From assembly GCF_003334255.1 (NCBI RefSeq), contig NZ_QOWU01000119.1: a stretch of DNA of 3,540 bases. One strand, given 5' to 3'. Shown here one piece after another: positions 1-3,540 of the stretch; position 1 is the stretch's first letter, and each line of letters opens with the position of its first letter. The notes beneath the pieces are model-generated. The model had not been told where the DNA came from. It saw only the letters and a list, made by a program, of their open reading frames with translations, and made no database searches. This DNA is from Escherichia coli (GTDB lineage: Bacteria > Pseudomonadota > Gammaproteobacteria > Enterobacterales > Enterobacteriaceae). A program made the position numbers and the translations under genes.

Positions 1-243
1 CATAAACCGGTGCAGTACTATCCCGGGAAACATCCGTGCGAAAAACCGGCAGAAATGCTGCAGCAGATAATCAGCGCGAGCAGTCGTCCGGGTGACCTGG
101 TTGCAGATTTCTTCATGGGGTCAGGTTCGACAGTCAAAGCAGCGATAGCGCTGGGACGTCGTGCAACTGGCGTTGAGCTGGAGACTGAGCGTTTTGAGCA
201 GACGGTCAGGGAAGTTCAGAATTTAGTCAGTCAGAACGGATGA
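1..243 (+). CDS. DNA methyltransferase (N6-adenine/N4-cytosine type), C-terminal fragment; 5' end lies upstream of the window
   Basis: Frame 1 is open from base 1 to the TGA at 241-243. The translation ...HPCEKPAEMLQQIISASSRPGDLVADFFMGSGSTVKAA... carries the HPxxKP motif followed by the FxGxG AdoMet-binding motif (D-x-F-M-G-S-G-S-T) typical of this methylase family. The ORF-track start at 10 is an internal GTG, not the true start. Confidence 0.8.
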   Translation, partial: HKPVQYYPGKHPCEKPAEMLQQIISASSRPGDLVADFFMGSGSTVKAAIALGRRATGVELETERFEQTVREVQNLVSQNG

Positions 244-283: not shown

Positions 284-359
284 GGCCCTTTAGCTCAGTG
301 GTGAGAGCGAGCGACTCATAATCGCCAGGTCGCTGGTTCAAATCCAGCAAGGGCCACCA
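284..359 (+). tRNA. ileZ: tRNA with anticodon CAU, tRNA-Ile2 (lysidine, AUA-decoding) type; 76 nt with encoded CCA
   Basis: Manual cloverleaf: acceptor GGCCCTT (284-290) pairs with AAGGGCC (349-355), discriminator A356, CCA 357-359. D-arm GCTC/GAGC; anticodon loop CTCATAA with CAT at 317-319; T-loop TTCAAAT. The sequence is close to E. coli ileX as I remember it. The symbol ileZ is by analogy with Stx-phage tRNAs and is tentative; from the anticodon alone an elongator tRNA-Met cannot be excluded. Confidence 0.8.
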
Positions 360-368
360 TATCACATA

Positions 369-445
369 CCGCCATTAGCTCATCGGGATAGAGCGCCAGC
401 CTTCGAAGCTGGCTGCGCGGGGTTCGAGTCCTCGATGGCGGTCCA
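369..445 (+). tRNA. tRNA-Arg, anticodon UCG; 77 nt with encoded CCA
   Basis: Manual cloverleaf: acceptor CCGCCAT (369-375) pairs with ATGGCGG (435-441), discriminator T442, CCA 443-445. U8 present; D-arm GCTC/GAGC with ATCGGGATA loop; anticodon stem CCAGC/GCTGG; loop CTTCGAA with TCG at 403-405; 5-nt variable loop; T-stem CGGGG/CCTCG (one G-U); T-loop TTCGAGT. Confidence 0.75.
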
Positions 446-501
446 TTATCTGCATTATGCGTTGTTGGTTCTGATGAGTGAATCATTGTCTTTTGAGCAA
501 C

Positions 502-523
502 AGGCTATCATATAAGATAGCCT
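502..523. repeat. Perfect 8-bp inverted repeat (hairpin) in the tRNA-to-ORF spacer
   Basis: AGGCTATC (502-509), 6-nt loop atataa, GATAGCCT (516-523). It is not followed by a T-run, so it is not a canonical terminator; it could be an RNA processing structure or a protein-binding site. Confidence 0.5.
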
Positions 524-723
524 CAGACTTCCTTGTTTATTCTCGCCGGATGCTTCGTAGATATTTGCAGGCATCTGTATGCAGGGGTATTATTGCGGCA
601 TATATCATCCGGAAAAATAAAAACTACATGCTGATCCGGAGATGATAGTTACAAGTCCTCCCGGATCCCGCATATTTACTATATTTTATAGATAATTGTT
701 CTTGTTAATATGGAGATGGATAA

Positions 724-1152
724 ATGTATTGCCGTGCTGTACCAGTTCTTGTTTTGATATTAGCCAGTCTGACAACTGGCTGCACAAAAGATGTATCGAC
801 AAATAATTATGATGCTTCTCTGTATCACTCAGATAAATTAATAAAGTCGCAAAATTTGAGCTCATCGGAACGTACCCCTGATGCCAGTGAAGAAATCAGG
901 CAGTATGCCATTCAGGTCAGGAAAGCCATAGAAGAACAGTTAAAGGATGCGAGTAAGTATTCAGGAAAAGAGTGTTCACTGAGAATGTATATGGCCCCGA
1001 ATGGTCTTCTGCTACAGGTTAAAAGAGAAAGCGGTGATCCCGATTTATGTCGTGAAGCGATGAATGCAGTAAAGAATGCTGATATACCATCACCACCGTC
1101 TTCAGGAGTATATAAAGCATTTAGAAATGGCGTGCTGGATTTTAAACTCTGA
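724..1152 (+). CDS. Predicted lipoprotein with a TolA C-terminal (domain III)-like domain; prophage cargo gene
   Basis: ATG 724 to TGA 1150-1152, 142 codons; GGAG at 712-715 is a plausible Shine-Dalgarno. N-terminus MYCRAVPVLVLILASLTTGC has a hydrophobic core and a lipobox-like TTGC with Cys20 and Thr at +2. A Ser/Thr/Asn/Asp-rich linker follows. The C-terminal 85 residues or so (YAIQVRKAIEEQLKDASKYSGKECSLRMYMAPNGLLLQVKRESGDPDLCREAMNAVKNADIPSPPSSGVYKAFRNGVLDFKL) align by eye with remembered E. coli TolA-III (...YAGQIKSAIESKFYDASSYAGKTCTLRIKLAPDGMLLDIKPEGGDPALCQAALAAAKLAKIPKPPSQAVYEVFKNAPLDFKP), including both Cys (codons 973-975 and 1048-1050), the GDP-x-LC motif and the terminal LDFK. GC is about 30-42% here versus more than 50% in the flanking genes. 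Confidence 0.8.
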   Translation: MYCRAVPVLVLILASLTTGCTKDVSTNNYDASLYHSDKLIKSQNLSSSERTPDASEEIRQYAIQVRKAIEEQLKDASKYSGKECSLRMYMAPNGLLLQVKRESGDPDLCREAMNAVKNADIPSPPSSGVYKAFRNGVLDFKL

Positions 1153-1155
1153 CAG

Positions 1156-1175
1156 GGGGAGAAGATTTTCTCCTG
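1156..1175 (+). terminator. Weak stem-loop immediately after the 724-1152 stop codon
   Basis: GGGGAGAA (1156-1163), loop GATT, TTCTCCT (1168-1174). The downstream tract tcctgatgattttgg is only moderately T-rich, so this is a possible weak intrinsic terminator or mRNA-stabilising hairpin. Confidence 0.3.
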
Positions 1176-1328
1176 TCCTGATGATTTTGGGGCGCTGGAA
1201 AGATATTGTGCTGTGAAGTGTTAAATTCCTCACAATTCAGTAAGTTGACAGTTGCCTGTCAGACTGGGCATTTGTTAAAAAAATTTCGCATGGTGAATCC
1301 CCCTGAGCGGAGGGGCGACTGGTGACGG

Positions 1329-1334
1329 TATAAT
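1329..1334 (+). promoter_or_regulatory. Consensus -10 hexamer TATAAT without a convincing -35
   Basis: TATAAT at 1329-1334. No good TTGACA-like hexamer lies 16-18 bp upstream (AGCGGA at 17 bp). The consensus TTGACA at 1245-1250 is too far away to pair with it and has no good -10 of its own. Confidence 0.25.
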
Positions 1335-1340
1335 CTCTGA

Positions 1341-1462
1341 TTATCAAAACGAGAATGACGCGGGTTTAGTGGCACCGGGCTGAACTCACCGGGAGGCACC
1401 CGGCACCATGTTCATGGTGATACAGAAATGCGGCTTCAGCCCCTCTCCGGAGGGGCTTTCTT
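1341..1462 (+). ncRNA. Hypothetical small structured RNA of about 120 nt, running from the candidate -10 to the intrinsic terminator
   Basis: There is no credible ORF in this interval. Consecutive hairpins: CCGGG-aggca-CCCGG (1389-1403), perfect palindrome CACCATG-tt-CATGGTG (1404-1419), and the terminator hairpin at 1438-1457 followed by a T-rich tract. Purely structural inference. Confidence 0.25.
1438..1462 (+). terminator. Rho-independent terminator, + strand
   Basis: AGCCCCTC (1438-1445), loop TCCG, GAGGGGCT (1450-1457): an 8-bp GC-rich stem followed by TTCTTAT. Confidence 0.6.
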
Positions 1463-1468
1463 ATGGAC

Positions 1469-1689: not shown

Positions 1690-3540
1690 ATGACATTTAA
1701 ACACTACGATGTGGTCAGGGCGGCGTCGCCGTCAGACCTTGCGGAGCGACTGACACAAAAACTGAAGGAGGGGTGGCAGCCATTTGGCAGCCCTGTGGCC
1801 ATCACGCCTTATACCCTGATGCAGGCCATTGCGGCGGAAGGTGATGTCACCACACCGGTGGTGGTGCAACCGTCGGGTGATGGTGGCGCTGTTATCAGCA
1901 CCACCAGCGAACCGGAATATTACTTTGTCATTGCGCTGGCCGGGCAGTCCAACTCGATGTCTTTTGGCGAGGGGCTGCCGCTGCCGGAGACATATGACCG
2001 TCCGGACCCGCGTATTAAACAGCTGGCGCGTCGCAGTACGGTGACGCCGGGTGGTGCCGCCTGTAAATATAACGACATCATTCCGGCAGACCACTGTCTG
2101 CATGATGTGCAGGATATGAGTAACCTGAATCATCCTCATGCAGACCTGAGTAAGGGACAGTACGGTTGTGTGGGGCATGCTCTGCATGTTGCCAAAAAGC
2201 TGCTGCCGTTTATGCCTGCGAATGCGGGTATCCTTCTTGTTCCATGTGGCCGTGGCGATTCGGGATTTACTGCGGGGGCCGAGGGGGCGTTTAACGAAGC
2301 GTCGGGAGCGACCGCAGGCTCGTCCCTGTGGGGGGCGGATAAACCGCTGTATCATGACCTGGTCAGCAGAACCCGTGCGGCCCTGAAGAAAAATCCGAAG
2401 AACGTGCTGTTATCAGTGATCTGGATGCAGGGAGAAAAAGATGTCAGTTCGGGGAGACATGCAGAACACAATGCGCTTTTCCTTGCCATGGTAAATCAGT
2501 TCCGTACGGAACTGGCAGATGTGGCAGAGCAGTGTACTGGCGGGACAACGGCCAGCGTCCCGTGGATTTGCGGTGATACCACGTACTACTGGAAGGAAAG
2601 GTATGCAGCGCCGTATGAGGCGGTTTACGGTGGGTATAAAGGCAAAGCTGCGCAGAATATTCACTTTGTGCCGTTGATGACGGATGAGCATGGTGTGAAT
2701 GTGCCGACAAACGAGCCGTCAGAAGATCCGGACATTATCCCGGCGGGATACTATGGCGCTGCGTCACGCACTGCCAGTAACTGGACGTCAGCCGATCGTA
2801 AAACGCACTTCAGTTCATGGGCGCGAAGAGGCCTTGTTTCAGACCGCCTGGCAGGTGCCATTTTGCAGTACGCCGGGCGGACATTATCGTTCCTTACCGG
2901 GCAGAGCGCACCGCAGTCGGGTGGTACAACTCCCGGTGATGATGTCAGTCCGGGGGTACCGGGTGTTGAGAAACCGCAGGATGGCGGTGTTGCTGGTACT
3001 GGTCATGATGAGGCCGTGAGCAGTACCAGGACGGTGGCTGAATATGATGCGAACAGTGGAAATGGTGTATGGACAGAGCAGCAGTGGGGGGCTGCCGGTG
3101 GCAAAGGCACTGTGACTGATGACGGTGGACGGAAAGCGCTACGACTGGAAAAACAGCCCGGTAAACTGACGTCCTGGAAAATGTTCCGTACTGTTGCAGT
3201 GGAGGAGGCAAAAAATCTTCTCAGCAAGGGGGGTGAAATTGCCGTACGGTTCAAAATTCCGGATGGAAGCGAACTGGTGAACGGACAGTTTGTCTTTGGT
3301 CTCTACTGGCCGGTGTCGCAGTGGGCGTCAGGCGCGGCAGCAAACAGTATGCTGGCATCATTCTTCCTTCAGACGGATGCATCAAATCTGAATCTTATGC
3401 ACCACAAGGGCACGTCGAATGCACAACTGGGTACATTTGGTGCGTTTGACCATAACTGGCATACGGTTGTTTTCCGCTTTGCGGGAAATAACAGCGAAAG
3501 AGTCGTTCCGGTGATTGATGGTACAGAGCAGACGGCGTTT
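1690..3540 (+). CDS. nanS-p: Prophage-type sialate (9-O-acetyl-N-acetylneuraminate) O-acetylesterase, NanS-p family; 5' partial, continues past the window end
   Basis: ATG at 1690 with a strong SD. I translated all 617 codons to the window end with no stop. The N-terminus MTFKHYDVVRAASPSDLAERLTQKLKEGWQPFG... matches the DUF1737-type N-terminal domain. It is followed by the SGNH/SASA esterase block YYFVIALAGQSNSMSFGEGLPLPETYDRPDPRIKQLAR with the catalytic GQSN serine motif, as in E. coli NanS (YjhS) and the Stx-phage paralogues. A Gly/Pro/Thr-rich linker (about 2890-3010) and a further C-terminal domain follow. Confidence 0.9.
   Translation, partial: MTFKHYDVVRAASPSDLAERLTQKLKEGWQPFGSPVAITPYTLMQAIAAEGDVTTPVVVQPSGDGGAVISTTSEPEYYFVIALAGQSNSMSFGEGLPLPETYDRPDPRIKQLARRSTVTPGGAACKYNDIIPADHCLHDVQDMSNLNHPHADLSKGQYGCVGHALHVAKKLLPFMPANAGILLVPCGRGDSGFTAGAEGAFNEASGATAGSSLWGADKPLYHDLVSRTRAALKKNPKNVLLSVIWMQGEKDVSSGRHAEHNALFLAMVNQFRTELADVAEQCTGGTTASVPWICGDTTYYWKERYAAPYEAVYGGYKGKAAQNIHFVPLMTDEHGVNVPTNEPSEDPDIIPAGYYGAASRTASNWTSADRKTHFSSWARRGLVSDRLAGAILQYAGRTLSFLTGQSAPQSGGTTPGDDVSPGVPGVEKPQDGGVAGTGHDEAVSSTRTVAEYDANSGNGVWTEQQWGAAGGKGTVTDDGGRKALRLEKQPGKLTSWKMFRTVAVEEAKNLLSKGGEIAVRFKIPDGSELVNGQFVFGLYWPVSQWASGAAANSMLASFFLQTDASNLNLMHHKGTSNAQLGTFGAFDHNWHTVVFRFAGNNSERVVPVIDGTEQTAF

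Follow-up and report, generated by a model that had tools for sequence, protein, structure and literature searches.

The question raised by this stretch of Escherichia coli DNA, 3,540 nucleotides in length and referred to here as the window, is whether the two tRNA genes near its start are there for the sake of the gene that follows them, a 142-codon open reading frame (ORF) rich in codons that are rare in this host. The original prediction likened the arrangement to that of tRNA genes and Shiga toxin genes (stx) in Stx phages and proposed that the tRNAs boost the translation of AT-rich cargo. We find that the layout is a new instance of the known Stx-phage arrangement and that the rare-codon match, though real, is incomplete and of a sort described before. 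Our preferred reading, to which we assign a probability of roughly 0.65, is that the tRNAs belong to the phage backbone and serve the phage widely, that the cargo cassette is foreign and not tuned to them, and that its product is a TolA domain III lipoprotein acting as a decoy. The features that matter most here are the following.

284 to 359, plus strand: tRNA-Ile2-type gene, anticodon CAU, first of the Stx2-phage trio (ARAGORN; Rfam tRNA, 72.5 bits)
369 to 445, plus strand: tRNA-Arg gene, anticodon UCG, second of the trio (argN) (ARAGORN; Rfam, 55.1 bits)
459 to 466, plus strand: first 8 nucleotides (GCGTTGTT) of the third tRNA gene (Arg-UCU, argO); left cassette junction, Stx2-phage homology stopping after 466
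467 to 1229, plus strand: AT-rich cargo cassette (moron) of about 760 bp, standing in place of the argO and stx2AB genes of Stx2 phages
564 to 593, plus strand: promoter-like site TTTGCA-18-TATTAT, agreeing with the consensus at 9 of 12 positions (weak evidence)
712 to 715, plus strand: ribosome-binding site GGAG, read from the sequence
724 to 1152, plus strand: cargo ORF of 142 amino acids, with a lipoprotein signal (Cys20, LTTGC, Thr at +2), a linker of about 30 residues, and TolA domain III (Pfam, PDB, alignment)
757 to 759, 841 to 843, 928 to 930, and 1084 to 1086, plus strand: the ATA codons of the ORF (codon count)
883 to 1146, plus strand: part of the ORF coding for TolA domain III, residues 54 to 141 (Pfam, PDB, K-12 alignment)

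The window runs from the Q antiterminator side to the lysis genes of a lambdoid prophage and is 100% identical to E. coli chromosomes such as that of strain G1/2 (NZ_CP060083), in which the prophage adjoins ompW. The prophage lacks Shiga toxin and resides in commensal E. coli. The order of genes in the prophage is Q antiterminator, a small ORF, DNA methyltransferase, the CAU tRNA, tRNA-Arg(UCG), the 142-codon ORF, the STnc100 small RNA (sRNA), a SASA/nanS-p esterase, holin, and lysozyme, the first two lying upstream and the last two downstream of the window. Positions 1 to 466 and 1230 to 2736 align with Stx2 phages at about 95% identity, and the resemblance to the tRNA-plus-stx layout is thus one of homology: in an otherwise common backbone, stx2AB of the Stx2 phages occupies the slot held here by the ORF. 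Sets of tRNA genes between q and stx are a common arrangement (PMC7366253).

The CAU tRNA gene proved to be of the Ile2 type, as had been proposed, and not a tRNA-Met. It agrees with K-12 ileX at 68 of 76 positions, with metT/metU at 54 of 78, and with the initiator gene (fMet, metZ) at 49 of 78, and with its counterpart in Stx2_95, also the first of the trio, at every position; in 933W this gene bears the name ileZ. The acceptor stem (GGCCCTT/AAGGGCC) carries C4-G69 and C5-G68, as in ileX, whereas metT and metU carry U4-A69 and A5-U68 instead. The former two pairs are needed by E. coli TilS (PMC1635315). The gene is annotated as tRNA-Ile by PGAP, and the "Met" label given by ARAGORN, which is based on the anticodon CAT alone, was rejected because the comparison with ileX, metT/metU, and metZ favors Ile2. 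The phage tRNA and the K-12 ileX/ileY tRNAs share the anticodon loop CUCAUAA, C4-G69, C5-G68, A73, and the D and T stems. Relative to ileX, the phage gene has U6-A67 for C6-G67 (a compensated change) and changes at positions 20, 26, 44, and 59, and the 27-43 pair (window positions 310 and 326) is an A.C mismatch where ileX has G.U. Being of the Ile2 type, the CAU tRNA therefore matches the ATA codons of the ORF. We infer that C34 would be converted to lysidine by the host TilS and that the tRNA would then accept isoleucine and decode AUA.

The second tRNA gene has the A20 and C35 arginine elements together with a discriminator base, U73 (window position 442), that is unusual for E. coli tRNA-Arg. 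With its UCG anticodon, it would be expected to read CGA and CGG, codons without a U34 tRNA of their own in E. coli, and not the AGA and AGG codons of the ORF, in which CGA and CGG are both absent; here, too, the original prediction was right in calling the match only partial. Of 53 IMG/VR copies, 52 have the anticodon TCG; the remaining one, like Stx2_95, has TCT. We considered UCG as a recent mutation of UCU in the present prophage and rejected it, as UCG is the common state and UCU the rare variant. In the two UCU variants (L002, which is Stx2_95, 2869 to 2945, and L082, one IMG/VR contig), a single-base anticodon change leaves two UCU tRNAs and no UCG tRNA. Two further loci are irregular at these positions: in stx2 locus L081, ARAGORN reads the first tRNA as Thr-CGT, implying an anticodon change, and in locus L159 the tRNA at the argN position is not typed by ARAGORN.

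The codon usage of the ORF is unusual by the standards of the host, and every count and coordinate that had been given for it was borne out. Isoleucine is encoded by ATA four times and by ATT and ATC once each; arginine is encoded by AGA three times, AGG twice, and CGT three times. The GC content is 0.41 overall and 0.33 at third positions, and the start codon, described earlier as directly downstream of the tRNAs, lies 278 nucleotides past the end of the second. The esterase gene likewise contains no in-frame ATA, either in the window (0 of 17 isoleucine codons) or in the full gene (0 of 18). How exceptional 4 of 6 is depends on the comparison. The ATA share exceeds that of the flanking host genes (5.8% ATA; P = 1.6e-4), of the rest of the prophage (16.5%; P = 0.008; the whole-prophage codon table comprises 49 intact coding sequences, most structural genes being frameshifted in the assembly used), of the AT-rich genes of the same prophage (22%; P = 0.024), and of the AT-rich K-12 rfb genes, which have no linked tRNA (23%; P = 0.029). 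Against the ORF's own third-position composition, from which 41% is expected, P is 0.19. The AGA+AGG share (5 of 8) is not unusual among AT-rich genes (P = 0.13 to 0.15), and ATA+AGA+AGG together (9 of 14) give a P value of ~0.01 against AT-rich nulls. The idea that the rare codons exceed the level of AT-rich genes thus holds nominally for ATA (P of ~0.03) and for the three codons combined, but not for AGA+AGG. The rare-codon richness is real by host standards and is mostly explained by AT content. The rare codons of the ORF would mainly reflect a foreign, AT-rich composition, and only its four ATA codons could gain from the linked tRNAs.

As in a moron, the cassette differs in composition from its surroundings, sits between conserved backbone genes, and is missing from related phages. 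Its GC content is 0.37 to 0.44 versus 0.50 to 0.60 in the flanks, no homology to Stx2 phages was found across 467 to 1229, and every locus whose allele is 95% or more identical has it at one fixed distance from the tRNAs. The three-tRNA order of Stx2 phages (CAU, Arg-UCG, Arg-UCU) is not complete here, the third gene being cut to 8 nucleotides, and an allele of 70% identity breaks close by, at position 461. A longer, decayed argO pseudogene at 466 to 530 seemed plausible by eye, but blastn-short backs the first 8 nucleotides only (E = 0.13). Among argN-matched loci, all 27 of the stx2 loci have three tRNAs, and all 22 of the loci with the tolA-like gene have two and lack Arg-UCU. The break 8 nucleotides into argO and these tRNA counts therefore indicate that the cassette replaced stx2AB (or equivalent cargo) together with argO. 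As judged from the sequence, the cassette has removed the one tRNA of the trio that reads AGA and AGG, the codons of five of the ORF's eight arginines, which is the opposite of a cargo-tuned tRNA set. The exchange itself would have been a recombination that placed the 760-bp AT-rich cassette between the second tRNA and the STnc100 gene, displacing stx2AB (or its equivalent) and Arg-UCU.

The distribution of the tRNAs and of the cargo across phages speaks to the same point. An identical tRNA-Ile2 core occurs in at least 137 distinct downstream contexts, and at least 33 tRNA-Ile2 contexts have no room for cargo, with 600 nucleotides or fewer between the last tRNA and the esterase or holin. The tRNA-Ile2 is common to different tRNA arrays and backbones. 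A cargo allele of 67% identity, found in 37 viral contigs 3' of an STnc100-like element and 5' of the holin, is accompanied by tRNAs in 7 of 7 loci of one Q type and in 0 of 28 of another, with the cargo codons being the same. The ATA codon at Ile121 is kept in all cargo alleles, including one that is mostly found in tRNA-less phages. The prophage as a whole uses ATA for 81 of 474 isoleucines (17%, versus 5.8% in the host flanks) and AGA+AGG for 24% of arginines (versus 3.5%), with CGG occurring 114 times; the ORF contributes 4 of the 81 ATA codons (5%). Taken together, the cargo-free contexts, the tracking with Q type, and the phage-wide use of rare codons indicate that the tRNAs go with the backbone. 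Both tRNA genes would then be fixed backbone genes common to Stx2 phages, and their likely role would be to supply the whole phage, which is richer than its host in ATA, AGA/AGG, and CGG. In loci L133, L140, L141, L162, L173, L184, L191, L206, L234, and L238, the identical tRNA-Ile2 core precedes Lys-UUU, Thr-UGU, and Gly-UCC tRNAs, with a holin gene immediately after them.

The product of the ORF completes the preferred reading. Residues 52 to 140 match the Pfam TolA family (PF06519; E = 8.2e-23, model positions 7 to 96 of 96), residues 54 to 141 match the PDB TolAIII chains 1S62/1TOL/3QDP (E of ~1e-25), and the alignment with K-12 TolA residues ~331 to 421 is ungapped, with 50% identity and both cysteines kept. 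The NCBIfam TolA model PRK09510 scores 103 bits against a cut-off of 213, with only profile positions 297 to 386 of 387 matched. The PGAP name "TolA" was rejected as a sign of orthology, given this score below the cut-off and the lack of both the domain I anchor and the helical domain II. The N terminus reads MYCRAVPVLVLILASLTTG and then C-T, with …LASLTTG directly before the cysteine; by eye, this is a lipobox with Cys20 and no Asp at +2. All four alleles and a tandem paralogue keep the lipobox, the equivalents being AAGC, IIGC, and VAGC, each followed by Thr. We infer that the protein probably leaves the cytoplasm, receives its lipid at Cys20, and ends up on the inner face of the outer membrane.

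The cargo family corresponds to PHROG 5772, labeled "unknown function"; the cargo had no PADLOC match, and a literature search on phage-encoded TolA-like proteins or ileZ/argN/argO turned up nothing relevant. Relatives are found in 895 of 5,426 complete E. coli genomes (about one in six), often as tandem pairs before the holin, and in one isolated phage, mEp460. The 67% allele is such a case, with two TolA-domain lipoproteins in tandem directly 5' of the holin (L029, 4001 to 4429 and 4580 to 4975; also L025 to L062 and L124). The second of the pair, which belongs to the same PHROG, is 24 to 30% identical to the first and to TolA.

In TolA itself, domain III offers one face to TolB and to the filamentous-phage protein g3p and the other to colicin A (PMC7066135, PMC7391070, PMC3365938). 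Since domain III binds the TolB N terminus, g3p, and colicin A, a free tethered copy of it is most simply read as a decoy, and from its sequence the cargo is probably an outer-membrane lipoprotein that acts as a decoy of the Tol system. Unconnected to the TolQR motor, the tethered copy would be expected to engage the TolB N terminus, group A colicins, and filamentous-phage g3p. More tentatively, and with the odds somewhat on the other side, the cargo may represent a new kind of phage accessory protein, an outer-membrane-tethered TolA domain III copy that works by mimicry: by capturing the TolB N terminus, the translocation domains of group A colicins, or g3p near the outer membrane, it would either protect lysogens from colicins and Ff phages or loosen the Tol-Pal link at lysis.

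Several results weigh against parts of this reading. In ATA+AGA+AGG content, the ORF ranks first among the 49 intact prophage genes tested; an early-region helix-turn-helix gene far from the tRNAs is nearly as extreme. The ATA shares of the cargoes found in the slot are as follows.

stx2A: ATA for 15 of 20 isoleucines (0.75); AGA 6, AGG 2
TolA-like lipoprotein: 4 of 6 (0.67)
YdeO/GadX-like regulator: 8 of 17 (0.47)
IraM-like anti-adapter: 6 of 13 (0.46)
108-amino-acid ORF: 3 of 10 (0.30)
TerB/DjlA-like protein: 0 of 14 (0)

These are the six families found downstream of tRNA-Ile2; behind the identical ileZ core there are at least six unrelated families and several different tRNA sets. Taken together, the six have higher ATA shares than 18 AT-rich baseline genes (baseline median of ~0.17; one-sided Mann-Whitney P = 0.018), and the ileZ-adjacent TolA-like alleles have ATA at 4 of 6 and 2 of 5 isoleucines versus 3 of 12 in the mostly tRNA-less allele (P = 0.15, in the direction of the original prediction but not significant), both being small tests that were chosen after the data had been seen and are uncorrected for shared ancestry. 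The slot-wide excess hints at some real relationship between cargo and tRNA. A modest permissive effect is plausible, in which foreign genes rich in ATA are better tolerated in this slot thanks to the backbone tRNA-Ile2. On the side of the protein, one of the three TolA lysines that contact colicin A is changed in the cargo (K368 to Tyr). On the side of the cassette, a consensus scan of the region gives no more promoter sites than shuffles do, the promoter-like site at 564 to 593 is not conserved in the 70% or 67% alleles, and as candidate cassette terminators the hairpins at 502 to 529, 1153 to 1178, and 1245 to 1278 are unexceptional (z of -1.3 to -1.6).

Some of these slot occupants and hairpins can be described further. 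The YdeO/GadX-like AraC regulator is found in some prophages 3' of the TolA-like gene, about 1,400 nucleotides after the tRNAs (locus L013); the IraM-like anti-adapter (L216) lies on the minus strand, and the TerB/DjlA-like protein (L153) has 195 amino acids. The hairpin at 502 to 529, just inside the cassette and 3' of the tRNAs, has a perfect 8-bp stem (AGGCTATC-ATATAA-GATAGCCT; z = -1.5) and might end the tRNA transcript.

Among the alternatives, the one that best withstands these data is that the tRNA genes are mainly conserved anchors for cassette exchange by recombination, with decoding being secondary or vestigial. The left junction does lie inside a tRNA gene, the 70% allele breaks only a few nucleotides away, and unrelated cargoes and varied tRNA sets follow one ileZ core; tRNA genes have also been proposed as markers of a captured stx region (PMC7366253). 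Yet this is the single junction mapped within a tRNA gene, the right junction being at the STnc100 sRNA gene. Moreover, the tRNAs are intact and nearly invariant over their backgrounds, as the argN anticodon illustrates, which speaks for functional selection, and the codon usage of the prophage creates a demand for both of them. We therefore consider it somewhat unlikely that anchoring is their main role.

For the cargo alone, the protein may be a late helper of lysis, one that weakens the Tol-Pal link for faster lysis or more vesicles, rather than a decoy that protects the lysogen. Cells that lose Tol-Pal function have an unstable outer membrane and hypervesiculate (PMC7391070). The gene is part of the late operon, with Q on one side and the holin on the other, the 67% allele places its tandem pair directly before the holin, and the consensus scan revealed no convincing promoter of its own. 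That said, an AT-rich island is the form typical of lysogen-expressed genes, and spanins already handle the outer membrane in such phages, which leaves a lysis-helper function an unlikely explanation.

Less likely again is the proposal from which we started, that the tRNA genes are kept beside the cargo because they boost its translation, a match of supply and demand in cis like that proposed for stx. It is true that the first tRNA is of the Ile2 type, that the ORF ranks first in the prophage for rare codons with ATA at 4 of 6 isoleucines, that stx2A in the same slot uses ATA at 15 of 20 along with six AGA and two AGG codons, and that the six slot families lie above the AT-rich baseline. Specific coupling nevertheless fails at several points. 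A cassette with AGA/AGG at 5 of 8 arginines deleted the tRNA that reads them, and the remaining Arg tRNA reads codons that the ORF does not use. The ileZ gene is kept in at least 33 contexts without cargo; the cargo family occurs, with its codons unchanged, in 28 tRNA-less contexts, following Q type; the ATA share is within what the ORF's own composition predicts (P = 0.19); and only 5% of the prophage's ATA codons are in the ORF. What survives of the proposal is the weaker, permissive form, to which the slot-wide comparison (P = 0.018) lends some support. A last explanation, that the tRNAs are spare copies against anticodon nucleases or tRNA-cleaving colicins, independent of codon usage, is very improbable: phage tRNAs that escape tRNA-targeting defenses are known in general, and the Arg tRNA combines an uncommon U73 with an anticodon that E. 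coli lacks, yet nothing in the window points to such a role, and the tRNA-Ile2, close to ileX (68/76), has the same anticodon loop and therefore would not escape a loop-recognizing nuclease.

The remaining features of the window belong to the backbone.

1 to 243, plus strand: 3' end of a DNA methyltransferase gene, an open frame from base 1, annotated as a DNA methyltransferase in NZ_CP060083 and ~95% identical to the methylase region of Stx2 phages
1259 to 1468, plus strand: STnc100-family prophage sRNA gene (Rfam RF02076), outside the cassette
1690 to 3540, plus strand: 5' part of a SASA-family sialate O-acetylesterase gene (nanS-p type) (annotation and codon counts)

The methyltransferase gene uses ATA for 2 of 3 isoleucines within the window and for 5 of 15 in the full gene. 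The STnc100 match is full length (165.6 bits versus a gathering score of 47, model positions 1 to 206, in Rfam) and is closed by a terminator-like hairpin at 1438 to 1457. The element is also found 3' of stx2B in Stx2_95 and is duplicated in locus L024; according to a 2026 preprint, STnc100 is related to PasD and linked with esterase genes. Minus-strand ORFs at 316 to 486 and 686 to 865 and a plus-strand ORF at 478 to 645 were taken as chance, as they overlap the tRNAs or the cargo or sit in the cassette leader.

Outside the window, most head and tail genes of the prophage (NZ_CP060083, 2923000 to 2946000) are annotated as frameshifted in strain G1/2, through decay or assembly errors, and an autotransporter/S6 peptidase cargo lies at the tail-fiber end. 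A 108-amino-acid protein encoded after the lysis genes of the same prophage (locus L001, 16262 to 16588) is called "TonB family protein" by PGAP and "Rz-like spanin" by PHROGs. It had no PADLOC match and may be another energy-transducer C-terminal domain copied by the phage, the second after that of the cargo.

The implications of these results are of two kinds. First, that the tRNAs stay with the backbone while the cargoes change argues against calling every neighboring rare-codon gene tRNA "served," and here one cargo was gained at the cost of the Arg-UCU tRNA. At the same time, the weak slot-wide ATA excess suggests that foreign genes, Shiga toxin among them, may settle at this site more easily because of the tRNAs, which bears on how toxin genes are acquired. 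Second, the TolA-mimic lipoprotein is the more useful lead, being widespread, uncharacterized, and a copy of the part of TolA that is exploited by colicins and filamentous phages. It could reveal that prophages of gut E. coli use mimicry to change how sensitive the cell is to colicins or phages, or how stable its envelope is.

How far does this locus depart from systems already described? The names ileZ-argN-argO and the rare-codon hypothesis for stx reportedly go back to the 933W genome described by Plunkett and colleagues in J Bacteriol in 1999. Compared with the 933W-type cluster, ileZ-argN-argO-stx2, the present locus has the same backbone (~95%) and an identical first tRNA, and the cargo is AT-rich and ATA-rich in both. 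It differs in that the third tRNA is reduced to 8 nucleotides and the cargo is a TolA-domain lipoprotein, not stx2AB. The ATA excess is much better supported for stx2A (15 of 20) than for the present ORF (4 of 6).

Phage tRNAs in general are said by Bailly-Bechet and colleagues (Genome Res, 2007) to compensate for differences in codon usage between phage and host. The present prophage fits that model in being richer than its host flanks in ATA, AGA/AGG, and CGG and in carrying tRNAs for ATA and for CGA/CGG. It departs from the model in lacking a tRNA for AGA/AGG, which account for 24% of its arginine codons, and in showing no enrichment of CGA.

With E. coli TolA domain III (1S62, 1TOL, 3QDP/3QDR), the cargo protein shares ~90 residues without a gap, including both cysteines, the LL.VK strand, and the C-terminal VY..F....LDFK. 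In contrast to E. coli TolA, it is phage-borne and lacks the domain I anchor and the long helical domain II, having a lipoprotein signal and a short linker instead. Small outer-membrane lipoproteins that change the host envelope are familiar from other phages, among them Llp of T5 and Cor of phi80 and N15, which block FhuA, and Bor of lambda. Llp also features in bioRxiv 10.64898/2026.03.26.714494. The cargo resembles these in being a short accessory phage lipoprotein with a predicted action at the envelope. It has no sequence relationship to them, and where they bind an outer-membrane receptor, the cargo copies a periplasmic domain of its host and would act by mimicking or titrating it.

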